Notes under the pieces: generated by a model | What the model was told of the DNA's origin: nothing | What the model saw: only the letters and a program-made list of their open reading frames with translations | The model's database searches: none | DNA from: Heterostelium pallidum | Lineage: Eukaryota | Direction: 5' to 3' | NCBI RefSeq assembly: GCF_000004825.1 | Contig: NW_008805103.1 | Span: 119,941-183,940, forward strand | Length of the DNA stretch: 64,000 bases | Made by a program: the position numbers and the translations under genes | Part shown: piece by piece, positions 39,005 to 58,598 of the stretch | How the letters are laid out: every line of letters starts with the position of its first letter | How positions within the stretch are numbered: position 1 is the first letter of the stretch

Positions 39005-41586
39005 ATGGGAAATGTAGATATTGAAATGAAAGATGATAAATCACCAACAGAAACAACAACAACAGAGACATCTACAACCAATAATAATAATAATAATAAT
39101 TTAGACGAAGAAATGAATGTTACTGAAACAACAGAAACAGAAACACCGACATCGACATCACCAACAACATCATCACCACCAACCTCTAGTAGCAATACAC
39201 ATACACCATCGATTGGTGGTGGTAGTGGTGGTGGTATTACAAACGAAGAGGATGATGAAGAAGAAGATTATATTGTAACGGAGGTACCTGTCTATCTCTC
39301 ACAGACACTGGCAGACAACTTGTTCCTCTTTCAATATCCACTGCGACAACCTTGGAGACCTTACGATATGAATCGACTCGAAGAACTTAGAATCAAGCCG
39401 AAACAACAGAAGGTAGAGATCGATCTTTCAATCGATATTGAATCCGACAATTTCAACGATCAATCAGATATCAAAACTGAAAAGAATACACTATCATCTA
39501 CATCCGTTGCACACAGAACAAACTATGCCGTTGGTATACTTAGAAATGGTAATATATATATAAGCAAATAATTAAACTATAATCTTAATCAAACTAAATT
39601 AACAACAAATCTATATATATAGATGAATTTCATTTAACACCTTTACAATCGATTATACAGTTAAGACCACATTTCAATGTTGTCGACGAGAAATATGAAG
39701 AGGAAAAGAAAGAGAAGAAAAGAGAGATCTTGGAGAGTGGTGAAGTTGACGAAGATGAAGATGATAAACCTCAACAAGTTGTATGTATATATTAGTTATA
39801 ACTATAAACAACATTCTATTTTATAATGTAATGTAAAACTAACATGTTTGATATGATAGTCATATAGAAAACCAAATGCAAAACAGGTGGCAGCGAATCA
39901 GCCGTTGAATGCGATCAAGAAGATGGAGGATGAAGAGAAGTGGATCAAACTGACGTTGGTTGACGATCGGCTGGATATCAATCTCGATGAACAATTCAAT
40001 AAGTTGATAGCACCCGTACAGGATAATATACATTTCGATTTGAATCCGATGCAGTATCTCGATTTGCTGTGTCCAAAGATACCCGAGGAATGGGTACCGA
40101 AGGAATCGCATGCACAAGAAACAACATCGCTCGAGGCAATCCATCAGATGCCATGGCAAAAGCAAATCCGACACATTCTCATGAACGGAAACGTTCTACC
40201 ATTCTCAAAGATCTACCAGCTGCTCTCTGACCACTCCATACCCGACTACGAAGTAGCTGCTGAACTTGAAAACATTGCATATCTACTTAAAGGTAGATGG
40301 GTAATTAAAAGGTAACTAATTAGTTATATAGAATATATACACAACAAATATATATACATTATAATGTTTAACGTTACTAACAAACTAACTAATTAATCTG
40401 TTAATATATATATATAAATTGTGTTTACAGTGATATTGTATATAAAGAATCGAGTCATATTATTGCAAGAGATTATTTGTTACAGTTGTATCTGGATAAT
40501 GATTCGGTTTGTAGAAAAGAGTTTGCAGAGAAAACGCTACTGAGTTCGGATTTCGCAAGAGATATGCTGGCAAAGATTGCCAATGTCGACTTGGTATCGA
40601 GAAGATGGTATCTGAAGCAACACGAAGACGAAGAATTCCTAACGAGATTCCCAATATTGGCAGAGAAACAAACTAAACTATTGAGAGATCAATATGATAG
40701 GTAAGTTTGCTAAGCTATTAATTGATTGATTGATTGATTCGTTGTCAACCAACCAACCAACTAACAACTAATTCTTTTCTTTAATTGGTTATTATTAGTG
40801 TTATACAATCATTGGAGAATCTATCGGATCCATCTTCGAATCCAATATTCGATATTATATCGAGAGGTATCGGTAAGGAACAACTTGGTCAACCATCAAA
40901 GACGGTTACTGCCACCGGTGGTAAAGACAAACAACAAGCCGGTGAAGCAAACGCTGCACCACAACAAGTCATTCCAGAGGATTTCACAGTGGGAACAACC
41001 ATCGAACAACAATTACTATTCTTTATTATCAATCTATTGAAAAATCATGGTGTTTGTTCAAATCTTTTCATCAAACAAAGTATTTCACAACAATCTGATA
41101 ATCGTAAGTTTTAACTTTTACATATATAATATCATACCTATTATTATTATAAACTAATTATTATACTACAATTAATTAGAAATGGCAAACAATCTATTGA
41201 GAGATCTTACAGATGATACTTTGGTAACTAGTACTTTGAATCTTGTTTGTGATAGAGCACATCATGCATATGTATTAAAGTCATCCGGTAATCCCAGTAT
41301 GGATAAAGTAAGTAAACAAAACAAAACATAAAAAACAAATGATTATCATCATCATCATCATCAAACTAAAAACGTAATCAATCAATAACTAATCATCAAA
41401 TTATAACAGTATCGTAGAGTTGTTATAGATCTATTTAAAAAGAAGATGATTCTTAAAAAGTCGGATGTTACCGATGCTTGTTTGAAGATTCTTGGTGAAG
41501 ACATTCCAGCAGGTATGAAAACAACGATCATGCATGAATTTGCATATCAAAAAGGAACGGCATGGGTATTTAAAGCTGGTAAATAA
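39005..41586 (+). CDS. rpc5: DNA-directed RNA polymerase III subunit RPC5 (POLR3E/C37 homolog); 7 exons: 39005..39548, 39623..39780, 39887..40311, 40431..40700, 40799..41103, 41180..41307, 41410..41586
   Basis: N-terminal VPVYLSQTLADNLFLFQYPLRQP and IKPKQQKVEIDLSID match human POLR3E (IDVYLAKSLAEKLYLFQYPVRP, IKPKQQKVELEMAID). Exon 2 begins DEFHLTPLQSIIQLRPHF, matching human GELHLTPLHGILQLRPSF. WVIKSDIVYKESS matches human WVVKSDILYPKDSS. Confidence 0.75.
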
Positions 41587-46604: not shown

Positions 46605-49106
46605 ATGAGATTAGTAGGATTAATTAGCGGTGGTAAAGATTCCATCTATAATCTATTGGAATGCGTTAGAAATGGACATACTATAGTTGCTTTAGCTCAT
46701 TTAGTTCCTCCTGTATCTGATCATGGTAAGTAAATATTGCTATAACTATTATTAATATATGTGTATTAATAGTTAATGAATCTACTACTATTATAATACA
46801 TAAAAATAAATAATTATACTATACAGAGGAAATAGATAGTTATATGTATCAAACAGTTGGTTTCAATGTAATTGAAGCTATTGCCGATGCATTGCAATTG
46901 CCATTGACACAAAGAACTATTGTTGGTAAACCAAAGTCACAAGATGAAATCTATAGAATTACAGATAACGACGAGGTAGAGGATCTCTACCAATTGTTGG
47001 CCGACGTAAAATCTAAACATCCAGATGTTCAAGGTGTTGCAAGTGGTGCTATTCTATCGACCTATCAAAGAATTAGAGTTGAAAATGTGTAAGTTAAAAC
47101 AATAACAATAACAATATTGTTGATACTAATACAGTAAAAACTAATCTCAAACATTAATGTTTACTATAATGCAGTTCATCTAGATTAGGATTAACAAGTT
47201 ATTGTTATCTCTGGAAGAGAGATCAAGATGAGCTACTTGGTGATATGATAGAGAGTAAGATGAATGCAATTCTAATCAAGGTTGCATCGATGGGACTCGA
47301 GCCAAAGAAACATCTATTGAAAACGATCGAAGAGTTGTATCCCGCTCTGAGGAAATTGAATCAACTCTACGGTGTCAATATCTGTGGTGAAGGTGGTGAA
47401 TATGAGTCATTGGTATTGGATTGTCCACTATTTAAAAAGAGAATACAATTGTAATTATCTATATATATATCTTGTGCAATTAATAATAATCATATTAATT
47501 TCGTTATTATTATTATTATTATTATTGTTATACATAAATTTAGAGATGAAACCAATATGAAAATACATGCAGACGATGCATTTGCACAGGTTGCTTTCAT
47601 TTCAATCGTAAAGTTTTCATTGGTGGAAAAGTCACCGGAGGAGTTGGAGGAGCAGAAACAATATCTACTTCCATTGAACGATGCTACTTCATTGAGAAAC
47701 AGATGGTCATATTTATTCGCTGAAATCGATACAACTTCAACAAAAGATCTATTACCATATGTACCAAGTTCTGCAACCTGTAAATTGCAAGAAGATTCAA
47801 ATACAACGGCTGGCAGCGGTTCTTCAGAGAATGTTTATAACACATTACAGCTAATTGAATCGAAATCAACTGGATTCTTTGTGATTCCTTCTTATTCGCC
47901 AGTCAGTAGTTCCGAGCTACCAAAGTCACCATCCGTATGTTTGGATATCATGTTACACCAACTCACCACATTGTTGGCACAGAACAGCTTGGATATGGAG
48001 AGTTTGCTCTATGTTAATCTGCATGTCAGTGACCTGGCCAATGAATTTGGAAATATCAACAAAGTGTACTACAAGTATTTCAAAGAGAATCCAGCTGCTC
48101 GTGCTTGTTTGCAAACCACTCTACCAAAAGGTCAATCAGTGATGTTTGATATCATCGGTTGTAGACAGCCAAAGAAAAACCTACATGTCCAATCGATCTC
48201 GAATTGGGCACCTGCTTGTATCGGTCCGTATTCACAGGCAACGTTTGTCAATGGTTTGGTTTTCATGGCTGGTCAAATCGGTTTGATTCCAGGTACTTTG
48301 ACTATGGTTCCCAGTGGTGTAGAGTCGGAACTCCAACAGATCCTAGTTAATCTCGTTAGTGTTTTCGATTCGGTTCCATCATCGCTGGAAAACACTCTAC
48401 ATGTAACCATCTTCCTCAAGGATATCAAACATTCCAACTTGGTAAGCCACTATCTAAAACAAGTGTTCAAACGCAACAAAGTCATGCCATTGTTTTTAAT
48501 GGTGGAAGCCGAAGCAATGCCAAGAGATGCACATATCGAGTTGTTGTTACTCAATGAAATGAAACCTGGTGATGATGATGAAGAAGAACAACAACAGAAT
48601 CAATTGAATCATTTCACAACTGACAAACACTTCCACGATACACAAAGAGGAATATTGACAGGCTATAACTCCTTGGTTACAACAAGCGTTGGACATTCGA
48701 CATTATTAAACTTCTTCCTCTCACTTGAAGATCTCAATCATCAAGACAACTTGTTTACACCACAGTTCCTTGCTGACTACTATTGTTCTTCTCTATCGGA
48801 TGTTTTAATCTCAACCATCTCAAAAATGAGACCATCCAATATTATCTATCTAAAGATCTATCATATCAGTTCACTTTCTTCAATTCAAAAAGGTAAGTAG
48901 TAATAATAATTATAAAATTCGAAAATTGGTTATGAAAAGAAAAACGACTAATTATTATAATTTTATTATTTTTAGATATTAAAGATAAATTATGTAAATC
49001 ACTTGGAAATATTCCAATTAGTTTTGTAATGGTTAATCGTTTATATGTTGAAGAGAATCCACATAATATCATTATAAACACAGAGATTATGGTATCAAAT
49101 AAATAA
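46605..49106 (+). CDS. dph6: Diphthine–ammonia ligase (DPH6/ATPBD4): N-terminal PP-loop ATP-binding domain plus two YjgF/RidA-like domains; 5 exons: 46605..46725, 46827..47088, 47175..47450, 47544..48892, 48976..49106
   Basis: MRLVGLISGGKDSIYNLLEC...IVALAHL matches human MRVAALISGGKDSCYNMMQC...IVALANL. EIDSYMYQTVG, ILSTYQRIRVENV and CGEGGEYESLVLDCPLFKKRI match the human protein almost residue for residue. The RidA-like block is YSQATFVNGLVFMAGQIGLIPGT. Confidence 0.8.
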
Positions 49107-49175: not shown

Positions 49176-50516
49176 TTATAATAAAATGAATGATAAGACT
49201 GAAATCAACAAGATTGTCAATTTCATGAATGGTGTGGTAATCGATGAGAATGATCCTGAATCAGAACCTGAACCGGTTGTAGAGGTGGTAGTGTTTGGAC
49301 CTGTTGTGGTACTGGTGGTTGGATCTGGGAAACAAGTTGGAGCAGCATTGTTGGTGTTTGGATTGAATTTGGTTGCTGGAATATTACCGTTCTCTCTTAG
49401 ACCAATGACACAGGTTGCCATGATAGAACCATCGTAGGTTGGGCTGGTAGTGTATGGCTTCGATCTAATGACGATGGAACGACCAAGAAGGTTTGGAATA
49501 CTGTCAAAGTATCCGATGTATGGTGTTGTCCAGTTGTAATAGGCAACATCGTTGTAATAAACACAGATGTTTCCGAGATCACCATAAAGACGAGTATTAT
49601 TGGTTGGAAGACCGTGAGTCTGATTGGAAAGTCCCCAAACTCCACCAGTTGAGCTTCCATCGGCAGTCAAACTGTCACCGAATTGGTTGATCGAAATACC
49701 TATTTGACCATCGGTTCCATTTACCATGGCAATGATATTAAGTCCCATTGGTTGGTTCGATCCAATAATGATATTCTTGATTTCAGTGATGAGAACGGTA
49801 CCGTTTACCAATGGATAGGCAGCAGTTGGTTGGAGGTAACAAACAGCACCATTTTGGATACCATTGTTTGGGATTTCACTGATGGCAGCATAGTTGGTTG
49901 ATTCATTCAACGAAGCCATTGGGGAAGTTGAAGGAATGAATTGTGGATTACCAATTCCCAAAACACATTGTGCAATAATATAGTTGCTATCGAATGGAGA
50001 TGTCGAAAGGGAAAATATTCTACCGACAACAGATTTTAATCCTGGACTCAAATTAAACATTGGAGTGGTGAAGGTTTGAGTCCAATTCATAGAGGTGGTT
50101 GTAAAAGTGGTTGAGCCAAGACATCCTGGAACTGTGCAATTATATTCATCATTGGGATTGTAACCGAAAACTGGGTTATTGGTATTCAACAAATTACCAT
50201 ATTGTCTGACTGTGGCATAAACGGTAGAAGAAACATTTTGGAATCCAGATGCAACAACTTGAACAGTATATTTTTCAGAAGAAGCTCCTGACTATAATTT
50301 AATAATAAGATATAAATTAAAATTTAAGCAGAATTTTACTATTGGTTTTTTAATACTTACATAATTTGAGATTAAAACATATCCATTAATATTGTTAGAA
50401 CCAACCGATTGAAGTTGACAGGAGGAATATTCAATTGGCTGTTGACATTGTCCCAGATTGACAAAAATAATATTGATAACAATGAATAGTAAGAGTGAAG
50501 ATGAAATAATTTTCAT
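49176..50516 (-). CDS. Secreted Cu/Zn-superoxide-dismutase-like beta-barrel domain protein lacking the metal-ligand histidines, with Ser/Thr-rich stalk and C-terminal hydrophobic (GPI-like) tail; exons 50516..50362, 50291..49176
   Basis: Signal peptide MKIISSSLLLFIVINIIFVNLGQC. ISINQFGDSLTADGSSTGGVWGLSNQTHGL...LYGDLGNICVYYND...GRSIVIRS resembles the SOD1 core ([21 protein letters not shown]...GDLGNV...GRTLVVHE). Only one His is retained. The C-terminus is MKLTILLISVLSFILL. The paralog at 51320–52681 is about 65% identical. Confidence 0.55.
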
Positions 50517-51319
50517 TTTTTGATTTTTGTTTTGGTTTCTGATTTGAAATGATGAATATCACAAGCAAATTCAAGTGTATTTATAGGTTTTAGTAAAGAT
50601 AACTTTTTTTTTAAAAAAATCAGAAAGTGATTTAAAAAAAAAAAAAAAAGATTTTTAATCTTTGGTTGGTATTCAAAAAAATCTGGCCTTGACCCCAGAA
50701 TATTTAGTTTAATTTTTAAATTCGTGAGACATAACGAAACTGCTAAATTAAAAACAATAGTTTTTTTTTTTTTTGATGTCTTGTCTTTCTGAAAAACTAA
50801 AAAATATAAATTTTATTATTAAATATCAAAAGGGTTATATATTGAATCTCTTTTTGGTCTTTTTCATTATTTGATTTCAAGTCTTTGGCTAATTTAGCTA
50901 TAATTTGCGATATAGAAATAACAATTGTTACCAAGATAAAAATAACAAAAAATTTGAGTTTAAAAAAAAAAATCTTCATCTTCAGGTGGATACAAGATTC
51001 TTTTATATGATTATTTTAACAAAATAAACTCGAAAAAAAAAAATATAACTAGAGCAAATATCACTTTTTTGATTTTGTTAAAAAATAATCTTTAATGGGT
51101 TTTATCCTTTTTTTTTGGGGAGGAGATACTTTGAAATAATCCTGGTAATCAAAAAAAACTAATAAAAATAAAATAAATAATAAAAAATAAAAATAATTAA
51201 AAATGTGTTATTTCATTTTATAGGTTTGTTTATTTATGCAATATTTTTGCAAAATGAACATAAAAGCGATGCAAAATTTTTTCATTTTTTGGGGGGAGGG
51301 ATAAAATGAAACACAAATA

Positions 51320-52681
51320 TTAGAATAAAATAATAGATAAAACCGAAAGAATAACAGTTATCTTGATTATTGGAGTTGTGATTGATGAGAATGATCCTGA
51401 GTCATGACTAGAGGTAGAGTTGTTGTCACCACTTGATGTTGTATTGGTATCTGGAGTTGGTAAGCAAGTTGGTGGAGCATTGTAAATGTTTACTTGTAAG
51501 TTGGTTGAAGGAATGGCTGTACCTTCTCTCAATCCAATGATACAAGTTGCCATGATGGATCCAGAGTAGGTTGGATTGGCAGTGTATAGTTGTGATCTGA
51601 CGACGATCGAACGACCAAGAAGATTTGGAATAGTGTCAAAGTAACCGATGTATGGTGTTGTCCAATTGTAAGTTGCGACATCGTTGTAGTACATACAGAT
51701 ATTTCCAATGTCACCGTAGAGACGAGTGTTATTAGAGGCAAGACCGTGAGTTTGGTTGGCAAGTCCCCAAATATCACCACAAGAACTTCCGTCGTCGGTC
51801 ATTGCATCACCGAATTGGTTGATTGAAATTCCTAGAGCTGGTTTAGTATTTGGTGCTCCATTTACCCATGCAATGATATTGATTCCATTTCCTCTTTTCG
51901 ATCCTTCTTTGGCACTCTTGACTTCAGTGATGAGAATACTTCCATTAACAGTTGGGAAGTCTTTGGTTGGTTGGAGGTAACAGACTGCACCATTCTCAAT
52001 AGCATTTCCTTCGATGTCACTGATGGCAGCTTGGTTAGTGGCATCCTTTACCGCAATCAAAGGGGAGTCAGCTGGAATGAATTTTGGATTACCAATTCCC
52101 AAAACACATTGAGCAATAATGTCTTTAGGATCGGATTCCGAAGTGGAAATAGCGAAGGTTCTTCCAATGATTGACTTTAAACCTGGGCTCAAATTGAAGA
52201 GACCATTGGTAAAGTCGGCAGTCCAATCGATTTCAGAGGCTTTAACATCAGCAGAACCAATACAACCTGGTGCGGTGGCACAATCGTATGGATTTTTACC
52301 GTCAAAACCGAAAACTGGATTCGCAGTGTTTTGTAGATCACCATACTGTCTAACGGTAGCAAATACACTAGTGGCCTGAGCATCCAATCCAGATGCAACC
52401 AAATAAACATTGTATAGCTTTGTAGAAGTTCCAGACTAAAGACAGAAAATAAATTAATATTATTATTTATTCTTTATTGTTGTTTATTTATTTTTTATTT
52501 TTATTTTAATAATAATACTTACATAGTCTGAGAATAAAACATAACCATTAATTTTGTTTGTACCGATTGATTGGAGTTGACATGATGCATACTCAATTTT
52601 ATCAGGTACTTGACCTTGTACAATACCAAGTATAATAAGGTTGATTAAAAAGATAAGAGATAAAATATGTGTGATATTCAT
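51320..52681 (-). CDS. Secreted Cu/Zn-SOD-like domain protein paralog 2 (same architecture; His ligands absent); exons 52681..52524, 52435..51320
   Basis: Signal peptide MNITHILSLIFLINLIILGIVQG. The core is ISINQFGDAMTDDGSSCGDIWGLANQTHGL...LYGDIGNICMYYND...GRSIVVRS. The C-terminus is IKITVILSVLSIILF. The intron position is the same as in paralog 1 (GTAAGT...TTTAG). Confidence 0.55.
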
Positions 52682-53883: not shown

Positions 53884-56800
53884 ATGAGTTCATTAGATGT
53901 CATTGATATAGATTACGATCAAGACAACTCATTGATTGCACTCAATCTACTACATACAATCAAATCACATAATCAGAGCAACTACAACAACAACAACACC
54001 AGCAATAACATTGTACATAATAATCATAGTGGTGAAGATGAAGATAAAAGTTATTTAACTATTTTCCTATCGAAAAGAAAATGTAAACAATCAAAAGATA
54101 TCTCTGGTTTAATTACAATATTAAAGGTAATAATAAAAACAATAACGTTAACAATGATAATCTCAAATGACTAATAATAATAATAATTAAAAAAAATAGA
54201 ATCAATTGGTTGAGACTGTTGAAGAATTAAACAAATTCCTTGATACTCATGAAAACGATTCACAACAACTACAGGCCAAACATTACCAACAATGGGTTGA
54301 TATTCACGATAAAATATCAAAAGATCAATTGTCAAATTCTATTTATTTGACAATACCAAATTTATTGAACAACAACCACAATAAAACTAATAACAACAAC
54401 AATAATAATAATAACCACACTAAGACAACTAATAGCAATAGCAATAGTAAAATCAACAATCCTATTCATGTAAATATTAAAATAGAACAAAAAGAACAAA
54501 CAATACTTCATCAAAAACAAGAAAAAGAAGAAGAAGAAGAACAAGAACAGCAACAACAAAAAGTAGAGGAACAACAGCAGAAAGAAGAAAAAGAGAATAA
54601 TCATTATATAAAAGAAAATAGTAATGAGAATAATAAAGATAATAATAATAATGTAAATGATATTAAAACAACATGTATATCACCTGATATTTCAAATAGC
54701 GATAATAGTAGTAGTAATCTAAAGGAAAAAGAGAAAGAGAAAGAGATACTGGAGTCAAAAGATTCAATTAAATATCAATTACAACAGCAACAACAACAAC
54801 AACAATTACAAAGGAAAGATCAAACAAAATCAGCTATTTGGACATCAACTAAACCTGTAGATAAGAAATCATCTGTATTCTTTAGAAATAATAGATACAG
54901 TGAATCTGTAAATCCAAAATTGATACCAACAAATAACAATAACAATAGCAACAACAACCATAATAATAATAATATTATTAGTGGTAGTTTAATAGTTGGA
55001 TCATTATCAATGAATCATGATAAAGTAAATTTGAACGCAAATTCAATTTCAAATTCTTATACTCCAAAAACAATTGGATCACCCATTACCAAGAGAAAAG
55101 TATTGAAATCGTTCATCTACAACAAGTTGGACTACGATCATTGCGAATCGAAATACGATGATTCTTCGGAGGAATCAGAGATACCCTATATGGAAACGAA
55201 CTGGGATACATCGGTGGTTGTTCTGCTGCCTTGTAGACATTCAATCAAAGTGCCATCCTCCGCCAACTCGACGATAGAGTCGATACTGCGACTGACCTAC
55301 GCCAGTGCCAAGATGCAAGGTCATCGCATCATCTCTGACTTTGATGCGTACATCTTTCAGCTGGACAACCAATACGAATTGATTCTCGATAAGGATACAC
55401 AGTTGCGCTCACTTGTGCAATCGCAGCGACTGACACAGGTGCGTCTCGAGCTCATAGAGAAGGATCACCAGTGTAAGGAGCGGCTGGTCGATTTGGATCC
55501 GACGGCAATCTCGATCAACGGACGTCCTACGCTGTGGAAATCACACATCGAGGAAGTACTCCGTTTCAACACGAAACTGAGGAAGCTCGCCAAACTCTGT
55601 GGCGACGCCAACTCTACTTCGGCGGTGGCGGACTGCGCGCGTCTCACTCCATATCCACCACCTCAAACTATACCGGAGAACTTTATCATTAAGGTACACC
55701 TTCCCAATCAAACAAAGACACTCCGCTGCAGTAGGAATCACACTGCTCAGACGCTAATGTCGATAGTCTCTGAGAAGGTAAAGACTGCCGCTATCAATCC
55801 TCAACGCTGGCGTTTCCTTCTCACTGGAATCAACCAGTATATTAGTCCAGACGTGCCGTTGTTGTCGGTGGAGTACGTCGTGGAGCGAATCAAGAGAACC
55901 GGTGAGATTGAACTGACGATGAAAGAGATTGAGACTGCCAACATTAGGAAATCCGATATCTTTAGACGCAACAACTATCACGATAAACCATCGCAGATCC
56001 TCTCGGTCATTTTGAAACCAAACAAATGCCAACCCGCTAAAATAAGAAGGATTACCAATGTCGGATCCTCTCCGACAGGCGTCAATCATCCGAGTGCCAG
56101 AATCGCCGATAATCTGATGTTGTCGGATTGCGAATCCGACTCTGACACTGTCTCTGCCTACGATGTCAAGGAGCACTTTAAGGTGAGGATTCTCCATGCG
56201 CACGACATTGACCCGTCGATTGCGAAATCACACTTTGGAACCGACCAGAACATTCAGGTGTACATTGAAGTCGGAATCTACTTTGGCGGTGAGTTGATCG
56301 CACCGCTTGGAACATCGAGTGGCGTCAACTACCAGGAGACAGTGGTCTGGAACGATTGGATCACCATCCCCATCCCAATATCGTCGATTCCAAAGGGATC
56401 GCGTGTTTGCTTCGGTCTGAACACACGATACAAAGACAGTCATTTCAACATTGGTTGGGTCGGTCATCGACTCTACGATTCACTGGACATCTTCAACACC
56501 TCGACGCCCTACTCGCTGCTGATGTGGCCTGGAAAAGTCAATCCAATCGGAACGTGCGTCGATAATATCCAATCAAAGAAACAGACAATCATTCTTGCAT
56601 TCGAATTCCACGACTATGTTTCACCGCTGAACATTCACTATCCCGATATTCTCACCAATCTCAAAACGAAAGACGACGATGCCATTCTCTCGATAACCAT
56701 TGACGACCAAGAAAAAGTAAACTATATCAACAAACAAGATCCGCTCTATACTCTGTCGGACGAGGAGAAAGCGCTGGTTTGGCGGTGTCGATACTACTGC

Positions 56801-58598
56801 CAGACCGTGCCAACCACGCTGCCAAAGCTGTTACAATCACTCCAATGGACCAATCCCGAGCATCTCAGTGAGATGTTTAGATTCCTCAAGAACTGGCCAA
56901 TCATCGAACCGATCGAATCGCTGGAGCTGCTCGATCCAAAGTTTGCCGACTGCGTAGAGATTCGTGAGTACGTAGTGAAGTGTCTGGATGCCATGACAGA
57001 CTATGAACTTGAACTCTATATGCTCCAACTGGTACAGGCTCTCAAGCACGATATATTTCACGGATCGGTACTCAGTCTCTTCCTGCTCGGTAGAGTCTTC
57101 CAGAATCCTGCGGTATTGGCCCACCCATTCTTTTGGCATCTCCGCGCAGACATTGACAACCAAGAGGTGAGCGAAAAATTCCGACTGCTCATTGTTGCAC
57201 TCCTCAGATTCAACACTCACCTCGCTGAAACATTCTCCAAGGAAATACAATCACTCAAGGTATTGGAGAATCTTTCCAGGCTGATAAAAGATATTCCATT
57301 TGAGAAACGTAGAACATTTATTGAAGAACATCTACGTGATATTAAAGGAGCAAATAACTTTAGAATTCCATTTGACCCAAGGTATGAATATACTACAACT
57401 ATTTTCTTTGAAAATTATTGATTGATTTTCAGAAAAACAATTAACTAACTAGTTATTTTATCCATTGTTGTTTAAACAGTATTTATGTAACAGACATAAT
57501 TCCAGAGAAATGTAAAGCAATGGATTCAGCAAAAGCACCACTTTGGATTGTATATAAGAATAGAGATTTGAATGCCAATCATTTCCAAATGATAGTAAAG
57601 ACGGGAGATGATCTAAGACAAGATATTTTAACACTTCAACTGTTAAAGCTGATGGATCACATGTGGAAGTCTGAAGGTTTAGATCTCCACATGACTATAT
57701 ACCGTTGTCTAGCAACTGGACTTGGTACAGGATTAATTGAAGTTGTAAACAATTCAGAAACAGCTGCAAGAATTCAATCTGTAAATATTATAATATCAAC
57801 ATGTTAACAACACAACTCTATTTTATAAACTCATTCATTAATATTATTTATTATACCTTTTTTTTTTTTTTCTAGGCTGCTGGTGGTATGACAGGAGTAT
57901 TCAAACAAACACCGATTGCAAATTGGTTGAAGAATCAAAACATTACAGAGAATACATATCGAGCTGCTGTCACTAAATTTACACTGTCATGTGCTGGCTA
58001 CTGTGTTGCCACCTATGTTTTGGGTATTGGTGATAGACACAACGATAACATAATGATTGATAAATTTGGACATCTCTTCCATATTGACTTTGGTCATTTC
58101 CTTGGAAATTTCAAGACGTTTGCAGGATTCCAACGTGAGAAAGCACCATTTGTTCTTACACCCGACTTTGTCTTTGTCATTGGTAAAGATTCTCCTAACT
58201 TTGATTTCTTTGTAGAGACATGTTGTAAAGCTTACAATATCCTCAGAAAGAATTCACATATTTTCTTTAATATGTTTGAATTGGTAAGTTTTGGTGCTGC
58301 TTTTTCTATTCATTAATATTTATAGATCGATATTAATTATTAATTATTATTATATCTGTATTATTTATAGATGTTATCAACAGGTATTCCAGAATTAAGA
58401 AGTGAAAGTGATATTCTTTATTTAAGAGATAAGTTTAGAACGGATTTAACGGATGAAGAAGCATCGGAAAGATTCATAAAACTCATTCACGAGAGTATCA
58501 ACACTCTGACGACACAAATCAATTTTGCAATACATATAATGGCACATAGAAAAGCAATAGCGATCGATAAGAAAACCGGTGACTCATCAAGAGAATAA
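53884..58598 (+). CDS. Class I phosphatidylinositol 3-kinase catalytic subunit (p110-like; Ras-binding, C2, helical and kinase domains) with long low-complexity N-terminal extension; 5 exons: 53884..54126, 54200..57381, 57480..57780, 57876..58283, 58371..58598
   Basis: Kinase motifs are KTGDDLRQDILTLQ, GIGDRHNDNIMI and HIDFGHFLGNFK. The C-terminal LSTGIPELRSESDILYLRDKF matches p110 (LGSGMPELQSFDDIAYIRK). MDSAKAPLWIVYKN matches p110 (MDSKMKPLWL). All splice phases were checked. Confidence 0.8.

Follow-up and report, generated by a model that had tools for sequence, protein, structure and literature searches.

Adjacent Heterostelium album genes for two-barrel SOD-fold proteins without metal sites, probable non-enzymatic members of the SodC family

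Structure of the PPL_11797 and PPL_11798 genes and proteins

Two genes in tandem, both on the reverse strand and referred to here as A and B, encode similar proteins with the fold of a superoxide dismutase (SOD). A search of the window, meaning the whole 64 kb stretch of DNA that was analysed, found no SOD-like genes beyond these two. Their features are as follows:

49176..50516, reverse strand: gene A, PPL_11797, 423 aa; exon 1 50516-50361, intron 50360-50292, exon 2 50291-49176 including the stop codon (splice model from sequence)
50445..50516, reverse strand: gene A, signal peptide, approximately aa 1-24 (hydrophobic N terminus, mean Kyte-Doolittle value of 2.06 over residues 2-20; a helix outside the barrels in the structural model; cleavage site approximate)
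49938..50435, reverse strand: gene A, N-terminal degenerate SOD-like barrel, approximately aa 28-170, with the intron inside (hhalign, AF2, Foldseek)
49392..49850, reverse strand: gene A, C-terminal SOD barrel, metal sites lost, aa 200-352 (Pfam Sod_Cu, 58.3 bits)
49179..49391, reverse strand: gene A, Ser/Thr/Pro-rich stalk and predicted GPI-attachment signal, aa 353-423 (composition, hydrophobic tail)
51320..52681, reverse strand: gene B, PPL_11798, 424 aa; exon 1 52681-52523, intron 52522-52436, exon 2 52435-51320 including the stop codon (splice model)
52079..52597, reverse strand: gene B, N-terminal degenerate SOD-like barrel, approximately aa 29-172, with the intron inside (single-domain SOD HMM at residues 32-148; second Pfam Sod_Cu stretch)
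51524..51991, reverse strand: gene B, C-terminal SOD barrel, metal sites lost, aa 202-357 (Pfam Sod_Cu, 60.4 bits)
51323..51523, reverse strand: gene B, stalk and predicted GPI-attachment signal, aa 358-424 (hydrophobic tail)

The extent of 49176-52681 originally given for the pair in a sequence-only reading of this DNA is correct, both spliced models reproducing the NCBI proteins: the translations match EFA74765.1 (PPL_11797) and EFA74766.1 (PPL_11798), each annotated as a hypothetical protein of Heterostelium album PN500, at 100%. The splice sites are canonical in both genes, that of gene A being GTAAGT...TAG, and the intron is in phase 0 and at the same position in each; it is also found at the equivalent place in Acytostelium 090860, the sole relative checked for this. 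The two proteins are 60% identical (259/430 columns of a global alignment), and neither PPL_11797 nor PPL_11798 was mentioned in any paper found in a search of the literature.

Composition and hydropathy reveal, in both proteins, the signal-peptide-like N terminus, Ser/Thr-rich stalk and hydrophobic C-terminal tail that the sequence-only reading had described. Ser, Thr, Pro, Gly and Asn together account for a fraction of 0.77 of residues 353-405 in A, and 0.62 in B, and the two proteins have 12 and 9 N-glycosylation sequons. A conserved DSGSFSSITTP motif, corresponding to the omega region, precedes the hydrophobic tail, which ends ...DSGSFSSITTPFMKLTILLISVLSFILL in A (mean Kyte-Doolittle value of 2.47 over the last 15 residues) and ...HDSGSFSSITTPIIKITVILSVLSIILF in B (2.59 over the same length). 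The features of a GPI signal are therefore a small-residue omega region (DSGS), a spacer of approximately eight residues and the hydrophobic tail. Taken with the homology to SodC described below, they suggest that both proteins are probably secreted, and anchored at the cell surface through GPI.

The SOD fold itself had been recognised from the sequence, and it emerges clearly from database and structural comparisons. The Pfam family Sod_Cu (PF00080) matches A at 58.3 bits and B at 60.4 bits, well over the gathering score of 28.9; the best PDB sequence match in phmmer is the Cu/Zn SOD 7b4o (E=4e-13), and structure prediction gives the Greek-key beta-barrel of the SOD fold. The AF2 model of the gene A protein, computed from an alignment of 106 sequences, has a pLDDT of 84.3 and a pTM of 0.84, with pLDDT mostly between 75 and 96 across the N-terminal barrel. 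However, where a single barrel per protein had been assumed, there are two. Profiles of the N- and C-terminal halves align to one another in hhalign with a probability of 99.2% (E=2.7e-19, 131 columns), and the top Foldseek match is 6dtk, a tethered single-chain SOD1-SOD1 dimer (E=1.5e-13, 355 columns, target-normalised TM 0.77); against single-domain Cu/Zn SODs the target-normalised TM is 0.8-0.88. Each protein is thus composed of two tandem SOD-fold barrels, neither of which has a metal site, and the two are predicted to pack against one another like the subunits of a SOD1 dimer.

Metal ligands and membership of the SodC family

With human SOD1 used as the ruler for residue numbering, the C-terminal barrel of A has S252 at the position of H46, N254 at H48, V270 at H63, L287 at H80, R328 at H120, Y332 at D124 and I342 at R143, while H71 and D83 are represented by H278 and D290. 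The pattern in B is the same (S257, N259, I275, H283, L292, D295, R333, Y337 and I347), with Ile at the H63 position. None of the four Cu ligands (His46, His48, His63 and His120) is present in the C-terminal domain of either protein, nor are there any in the N-terminal domain, where the alignment for A, read by eye, has no His at the ligand positions (Thr at H46, Arg at H48). As for the Zn ligands (His63, His71, His80 and Asp83), just the equivalents of His71 (H278/H283) and Asp83 (D290/D295) are left, in a Zn loop of unchanged length. The catalytic Arg143 and the second-sphere Asp124, both conserved in the relatives, are replaced by Ile and Tyr. Protein A has one histidine in all 423 residues, and B has three, the signal peptide and the stalk accounting for one each.

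The disappearance of the metal-binding histidines, the central claim of the sequence-only reading, therefore holds when the proteins are aligned to a solved Cu/Zn SOD: solely H71 is kept among the SOD1 histidine ligands, along with D83. Because the four Cu ligands are all gone, along with half of the four Zn ligands, Arg143 and Asp124, superoxide dismutase activity appears very unlikely for either protein, as that reading had also anticipated.

The relatives of the pair were collected through an exhaustive HMMER search of 1.84 billion representatives of 50% identity clusters, of which the best 150 matches were examined and their species looked up. The closest among these 150 are dictyostelid two-domain proteins, including SodC of Dictyostelium discoideum, and the C-terminal domain of the relatives has the ligand pattern HH.HH[H/E]DH.DR. 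Among related SOD domains the four Cu histidines are all kept in 332 of 385, and 145 of the 153 related proteins contain one or more intact domains, so the ligand loss in A and B is no chance pattern; just the two H. album proteins, among the best 150 representatives, have zero histidines at the Cu positions in every domain. Throughout the SodC family the N-terminal barrel is degenerate and the C-terminal barrel normally has an intact Cu/Zn site. Whether other dictyostelids share the loss had been left as a question by the earlier reading, and the answer is that they do not: SodC-family relatives in Acytostelium, Synstelium, Cavenderia, Tieghemostelium, Polysphondylium and Dictyostelium keep the Cu histidines of the C-terminal domain, with two proteins, Synstelium P0025 and T. 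lacteum P0083, being without the H120 equivalent alone.

In a neighbour-joining tree A and B pair with 100% bootstrap support on a long stem, adjoining a clade of Acytostelium and Synstelium proteins, a placement with 31% bootstrap support. Comparison of the gene neighbourhood with that of the Acytostelium tandem pair found no match within 10 kb on either side except the SOD genes themselves. To judge from these alignments, A and B are members of the dictyostelid SodC family by descent, yet not functional equivalents of SodC.

Two other assignments were considered. The proteins are not CCS copper chaperones, as neither the ATX1-like MxCxxC domain I nor the C-terminal CXC domain III was found in them by Pfam or by eye. 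They are also not of the opisthokont Cu-only SOD/CSRP type, as their relatives keep the Zn ligands H63, H71, H/E80 and D83 and the family is amoebozoan. Approximately 18 residues separate the H120 and C146 equivalents, as read from the sequences, and loop VII is therefore just moderately shortened. The role in metal chaperoning suggested from the sequence likewise finds little support, because mature A has a single histidine, Sod_Cu is the only Pfam domain, and inspection by eye revealed neither an ATX1-like nor a CXC motif.

The best 150 representatives, a set in which a paralogue at least 50% identical to an Acytostelium or Synstelium protein could hide inside a cluster, contained no intact SodC-type protein of H. 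album. It is unlikely that the species is without any catalytically competent SodC-type surface SOD, with the two dead copies under selection as its sole SodC-family genes. Were this so, the SodC double barrel would serve a conserved purpose at the surface of the amoeba that does not depend on catalysis, for instance as a binding partner within the signalling to which SodC contributes in D. discoideum, and the removal of superoxide at the membrane would be either dispensable or done by another enzyme.

Selection on the pair and its possible functions

Both open reading frames are intact over approximately 1270 nt, and the cysteine positions, signal peptide, splice sites and GPI-signal motif are conserved between the two copies. 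The segments that once formed the active site are nearly identical (GISINQFGD, QTHGL, NNTRLYGD and NLLGRSIV). Between A and B, dN/dS is 0.28 overall, 0.21 in the N-terminal domain and 0.25 in the C-terminal domain, at a dS of approximately 0.8-1.35; in the linker and the stalk it is 0.67 and 0.38 respectively. This indicates purifying selection on both copies since their duplication (dN/dS of approximately 0.25), which argues for a retained, non-enzymatic use. Since the same substitutions are common to both copies, the ligand loss is older than the tandem duplication.

We consider it likely, with a probability of roughly 0.7, that the tandem genes PPL_11797 and PPL_11798 encode SodC-family proteins that have lost catalysis, which would function as non-enzymatic surface glycoproteins with a double barrel serving for binding or as a scaffold. 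Each protein has, in order, a predicted signal peptide, a degenerate N-terminal barrel, a C-terminal barrel whose counterpart in the other dictyostelids examined is an intact Cu/Zn enzyme, a Ser/Thr-rich stalk open to glycosylation and a predicted GPI-type signal. In the Heterostelium lineage the C-terminal barrel would have shed the four Cu histidines and half of the four Zn ligands, together with Asp124 and Arg143; tandem duplication would have followed this loss, after which both copies would have been maintained by purifying selection. The stable double barrel could act as a module for recognition, adhesion or contacts with other surface proteins. Such a binding or scaffold role is the most likely one by analogy with oyster dominin and the Cu-less CSRPs, an analogy that points to no particular ligand.

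A more doubtful possibility is that the dead barrels are partners or regulators that bind a catalytically active Cu/Zn SOD, either SodC-type or secreted, and influence how stable, metallated or active it is, in the manner of CCS domain II or the poxvirus SOD-like decoys. The retention of the SOD fold, and of a surface that packs like that of a SOD1 dimer, would fit such a function, as would the frequency with which dead N-terminal repeats lie beside active ones in the SodC family and in CSRPs, for which a chaperone role has been proposed (PMC13017621). However, the canonical dimer interface seems to be filled intramolecularly by the second barrel, and the best 150 representatives include no intact SodC-type protein of H. 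album as a possible client, although one could still exist. The presence of Sod_Cu as the sole Pfam domain, with no ATX1-like or CXC motif by eye, also speaks against it.

It is less probable still that the site has been remodelled, such that His278 and Asp290, together with the new Ser, Asn, Tyr and Arg residues, bind a metal or small ligand for metal buffering or an altered catalysis. The strict retention of the H71 and D83 equivalents in both copies, in a Zn loop of the same length, is what would be expected of such a site and could allow weak binding of a metal, and metal binding by oyster dominin, a SOD homologue without a Cu site, is reported (PMC6530089). Two ligands are nevertheless insufficient to hold Zn or Cu stably; the four Cu histidines are all missing, Arg occupies the H120 position, hydrophobic residues are found at H63, H80 and R143, and mature A has only the one histidine.

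We give very little credence to neutral drift of functionless duplicates after loss of the active site, for although the pair sits on a long stem branch, the linker and stalk evolve faster than the barrels (dN/dS of 0.67 and 0.38) and transcript evidence is absent from the sequence sources, both frames have stayed whole despite a dS of around 1, the barrels have a dN/dS of 0.21-0.25, splice sites, signal peptide, cysteines and GPI-signal motif are alike in both copies, and the former active-site segments are almost the same.

Comparison with other SOD-fold proteins

SodC of D. discoideum (Q54RQ1, 'Extracellular superoxide dismutase [Cu-Zn] 3') regulates basal Ras activity, linking superoxide at the surface to Ras/PI3K signalling and chemotaxis, and it is to our knowledge the sole characterised GPI-anchored SOD among social amoebae. 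A SodC mutated in its catalytic site reportedly does not rescue sodC- cells. The description of SodC as GPI-anchored is given in PMC13081876, which cites Veeranki 2008. The protein (P0154 in our set, scoring 161 bits in the profile search) resembles A and B in having a signal peptide, a degenerate N-terminal barrel, a C-terminal barrel, a stalk and a hydrophobic GPI-type tail, within a length of approximately 410-425 aa. In contrast to A and B, which retain the H71 and D83 equivalents alone, it has the full set of Cu and Zn ligands (H245, H247, H263, H271, H280, the Asp and H320) as well as R143 and D124, and its identity to them is merely 22-25% or thereabouts. The nearest relatives are instead the group-2 SodC-like genes of Acytostelium subglobosum (090860, 090870 and 111890) and Synstelium polycarpum (P012643 and P007401), which also encode two domains, at 31-36% identity; in Acytostelium, as in H. 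album, a tandem pair is present. The C-terminal domains of these group-2 proteins read HH.HHEDH.DR (Cu site complete, Glu in place of H80), whereas those of H. album read SN.[VI]HLDR.YI.

The oyster protein dominin, or cavortin, is an extracellular SOD-fold protein without a Cu site or SOD activity, for which a role in recognition or binding has been proposed (PMC13017621; PMC6530089). Unlike A and B it is an animal plasma protein, its loss being independent, and the likeness is an analogy drawn from descriptions rather than orthology. The Cu-less CSRPs of arthropods and tardigrades have tandem SOD folds and are extracellular or GPI-anchored; none of their repeats has Cu ligands, although the proteins are expressed and a normal fold is predicted for them, and in CSRPs generally Cu has been lost from the N-terminal repeats (PMC13017621). 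These proteins differ from the SodC family, which is of the Cu/Zn type with two repeats, in being of the opisthokont Cu-only type, with no Zn site, a truncated loop VII and 4-12 repeats. Domain II of CCS is a SOD1-like barrel which has lost the Cu site and docks non-catalytically to SOD1 (PMC13017621); CCS is, however, intracellular, and its barrel is flanked by an ATX1-like domain I and a CXC domain III, whereas A and B give Sod_Cu alone in Pfam.

Balamuthia has a protein similar to A and B, which is labelled 'SOD-1'. In annotation, neither this protein nor the H. album pair should be counted among the antioxidant enzymes.

The existence of extracellular SOD-fold proteins that have no metal site is already established, dominin and the Cu-less CSRPs being found with CCS domain II among the SOD-like pseudo-enzymes. 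The H. album pair would widen the list of extracellular examples from animals to Amoebozoa, and, as a natural separation-of-function variant of SodC, could reveal the role of the double-barrel scaffold apart from catalysis.

Gene models and domain architecture

The two SOD-like genes, A and B, each contain a single short, AT-rich intron of the kind typical for dictyostelids.

Gene A, minus strand: exon 1, 50516-50361; intron, 50360-50292 (GTAAGT...TAG, phase 0); exon 2, 50291-49176
Gene B, minus strand: exon 1, 52681-52523; intron, 52522-52436; exon 2, 52435-51320

The spliced products, 423 aa and 424 aa long respectively, correspond exactly to PPL_11797 (EFA74765.1) and PPL_11798 (EFA74766.1), annotated as hypothetical proteins in Heterostelium album PN500 (formerly Polysphondylium pallidum) and both named 'Superoxide dismutase copper/zinc binding domain-containing protein' in UniRef. 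They are 60% identical in a global alignment, and no further SOD-like gene was found within the 64 kb window. The signal peptide, Ser/Thr-rich stalk and GPI-like tail proposed by the sequence-only reading agree with the composition of both proteins: each has a hydrophobic N-terminus, a stalk rich in Ser, Thr, Pro, Gly and Asn, and a hydrophobic C-terminal tail, ahead of which lies the shared motif DSGSFSSITTP. There are 12 N-glycosylation sequons in A and nine in B.

The Pfam Sod_Cu HMM (PF00080), the search by which that reading was to be checked, matched A at 58.3 bits and B at 60.4 bits (gathering score 28.9), and the best sequence match among solved structures was 7b4o, a Bacteroidetes Cu/Zn SOD (E=4e-13). 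Hence the suggested SOD fold was upheld, but the single barrel was not, as a second SOD-like domain makes up the N-terminal half (around residues 28-170). Family profiles of the two halves match each other with 99.2% probability (E=2.7e-19, 131 columns), and the single-domain HMM directly detects the N-terminal domain in B and many relatives. An AlphaFold2 model of A from a five-sequence alignment was poor (pLDDT 51); with a 106-sequence family alignment, pLDDT reached 84.3 and pTM 0.84. The top Foldseek match of this model in the PDB was 6dtk, an engineered single-chain SOD1-SOD1 dimer (355 columns, target-normalised TM 0.77, E=1.5e-13), followed by single Cu/Zn SODs (TM 0.8-0.88); hence the predicted packing of the two barrels is that of an intramolecular pseudo-dimer, like the subunits of the SOD1 dimer.

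Several other genes lie nearby.

39005-39571, plus strand: ORF with an RPC5 domain (RNA polymerase III subunit 5; PF04801, 115.7 bits)
47557-48900, plus strand: gene convergent with A, with two Endoribonuclease L-PSP/RidA-type stretches (PF01042, 89.8 bits)
54206-57421, plus strand: long class I PI3-kinase-like ORF with Pfam PI3K_rbd (Ras-binding), PI3K_C2 and PI3Ka domains

The RidA-type gene probably extends beyond an intron to about 49106, its stop, read by eye, being only about 70 nt from that of A. The PI3-kinase-like ORF begins about 1.5 kb past gene B and, since it stops at 57421, the kinase domain is presumably in a following exon. Its position is curious because D. discoideum sodC emerged from a screen for high constitutive PI3K/Ras activity (PMC13081876), although the adjacency is probably a coincidence.

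The metal site

The roles of the Cu/Zn ligands and Arg143 in Cu/Zn SODs are well established. Their equivalents in the C-terminal barrel were read from the 7b4o alignment and the single-domain HMM, using human SOD1 as the ruler.

Equivalents of SOD1 active-site residues in the C-terminal barrels
H46, Cu ligand: S252 in A, S257 in B
H48, Cu ligand: N254 in A, N259 in B
H63, Cu/Zn bridging ligand: V270 in A, I275 in B
H71, Zn ligand: H278 in A, H283 in B (kept)
H80, Zn ligand: L287 in A, L292 in B
D83, Zn ligand: D290 in A, D295 in B (kept)
H120, Cu ligand: R328 in A, R333 in B
D124, second sphere: Y332 in A, Y337 in B
R143, catalytic: I342 in A, I347 in B

The single ligand histidine noticed at the outset is thus the H71 equivalent, and D83 is retained beside it. 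It is the only histidine in the whole of protein A, whilst B has three (in the signal peptide, at the H71 equivalent and in the stalk); in contrast, histidines 245, 247, 263, 271, 280 and 320 of D. discoideum SodC form the exact ligand set. The ligand residues are also absent from the N-terminal barrel. Neither protein has any Cu ligand or Arg143, and each has only half of the Zn site; superoxide dismutation would therefore not be credible, bearing out the initial suspicion that catalysis was unlikely.

The C-terminal domain does not retain the canonical C57-C146 disulfide of SOD1, the C57 column of the family alignment being Gly. Two other cysteine pairs, each with one member near the start of a barrel and the other near its end, tend to occur together: Cys203 and Cys346 (A numbering) are both present in 64 sequences, singly in only six and absent from 36, and Cys33 and Cys161 are both present in 44, singly in 17 and absent from 45. 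This co-occurrence suggests a disulfide joining the first and last strands of each barrel. B has an extra cysteine, Cys272 (DGSSCGDIWG, window about 51779-51781), placed by eye at the SOD1 Cys57 equivalent, giving mature B an odd cysteine count; this position is Thr in A and mostly Gly, Thr or Val in other family members.

Family context and maintenance of the pair

When 1.84 billion cluster representatives were searched exhaustively with HMMER, 4075 matched at E<=1e-3, 164 of them at E<=1e-30. Among the best 150, the nearest matches of similar length, about 300-450 aa, come from other dictyostelids and have two domains.

Synstelium polycarpum
Acytostelium subglobosum: three genes, 090860 and 090870 being adjacent
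Tieghemostelium lacteum: six genes
Cavenderia fasciculata
Polysphondylium violaceum
Dictyostelium purpureum
D. discoideum: including SodC (Q54RQ1, 'Extracellular superoxide dismutase [Cu-Zn] 3')

According to Veeranki et al. 2008, as cited in PMC13081876, SodC is a GPI-anchored SOD without which basal Ras activity and chemotaxis are not normal. All these relatives have a degenerate N-terminal barrel. Whether dictyostelid orthologues also lack the histidines had been posed as a check, and these relatives do not: their C-terminal barrels retain H46, H48, H63, H71, His or Glu at 80, D83 and D124, with H120 and R143 kept in most, though not all. Among the matches listed, all four Cu histidines are present in 332 of the 385 domains covering these positions and none in 13; apart from those of A and B, the latter are N-terminal barrels or odd repeats in long multi-repeat proteins. 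At least one intact Cu site occurs in 145 of the 153 proteins listed, and A and B alone are devoid of Cu-position histidines in all their domains.

Next in degeneracy is a two-domain SOD-like protein of Balamuthia mandrillaris (P0094; KAL6047842.1, 430 aa), with 0/4 and 1/4 Cu histidines per domain and Pro at the R143 equivalent. This looks like an independent instance of the same loss, and its annotation as 'SOD-1 superoxide dismutase (Cu-Zn)' is probably erroneous. Thirteen further representatives among the best matches (P0007-P0012, P0014-P0016, P0019, P0034-P0036) span 720-2165 aa and carry 4-12 SOD domains in tandem; in some, every repeat has the complete Cu/Zn ligand set (HH.HHHDH), and others (HH.H..E..H) have no Zn ligands and resemble Cu-only SOD repeat proteins.

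In a neighbour-joining tree of C-terminal domains, A and B join on a long stem with 100% bootstrap support, adjoining the Acytostelium and Synstelium clade with weak support (31%); this placement agrees with the dictyostelid species tree. Their phase 0 intron is at a position equivalent to that of 090860, and their flanking genes are not syntenic with the Acytostelium locus. As A and B share every ligand substitution, the metal site was lost once, before the tandem duplication. Since that duplication, synonymous divergence has come to about 0.8-1.35, with dN/dS 0.28 overall (0.21 in the N-terminal barrel, 0.25 in the C-terminal); ORFs, splice sites, signal peptide, cysteine positions and GPI-signal motif are intact in both, and the former active-site segments are almost the same. 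Together these features mark A and B as genes that are non-catalytic but maintained, and not as pseudogenes in decay.

In Acytostelium, 090860 and 090870 form a head-to-tail tandem pair (locus L001, 10001-13386; DF837593.1), both with intact Cu-ligand histidines. Tandem duplication could be either ancestral to the group comprising the Acytostelium and Synstelium genes or recurrent. The tree, in which 090870 falls outside the 090860/111890 pair within a purely Acytostelium clade and A and B join each other, favours independent duplications.

Possible roles and known systems

We conclude with high confidence that A and B are catalytically dead, conserved, SodC-derived proteins. Their architecture and homology to SodC lead us to expect secretion, N-glycosylation and GPI anchoring, and we have moderate confidence in a cell surface location, where a rigid double barrel would be displayed on the Ser/Thr-rich stalk. 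On these grounds we read them as surface pseudo-enzymes whose SOD scaffold would be put to binding or structural use; confidence in any specific binding role is low.

They may possibly be partners or regulators of an active SOD, in the manner of CCS domain II, but the SOD dimer interface appears to be used internally in the model, and no intact H. album SodC-type protein was present among the best 150 representatives (clustered at 50% identity); the word-indexed homologue search had low recall. If H. album truly has no intact SodC, its whole SodC family would be non-catalytic yet conserved, which would add to the interest of the pair. A metal- or ligand-binding site remodelled around H278 and D290 is a weakly supported alternative, and neutral decay is contradicted by dN/dS.

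No paper naming PPL_11797 or PPL_11798 was found in a literature search. SOD-fold proteins without metal sites are an established theme (PMC13017621 and PMC6530089). CCS domain II is a known case of metal-site loss, CSRPs (Cu-only SOD repeat proteins) have Cu-less N-terminal repeats, and there are entirely Cu-less CSRPs in arthropods and tardigrades (PMC13017621, a review mentioning neither Dictyostelium nor Amoebozoa). In oysters, the extracellular Cu/Zn-SOD homologue dominin has neither Cu site nor activity, and has been linked to pathogen recognition and metal binding (both sources). A and B cannot be counted as Cu-only SODs or CSRPs, since Zn ligands are retained in their family, which is amoebozoan, nor as CCS, as they have no chaperone domains. 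They belong to the SodC family by descent, but not by catalysis, and are classed with the already known extracellular SOD-fold pseudo-enzymes.
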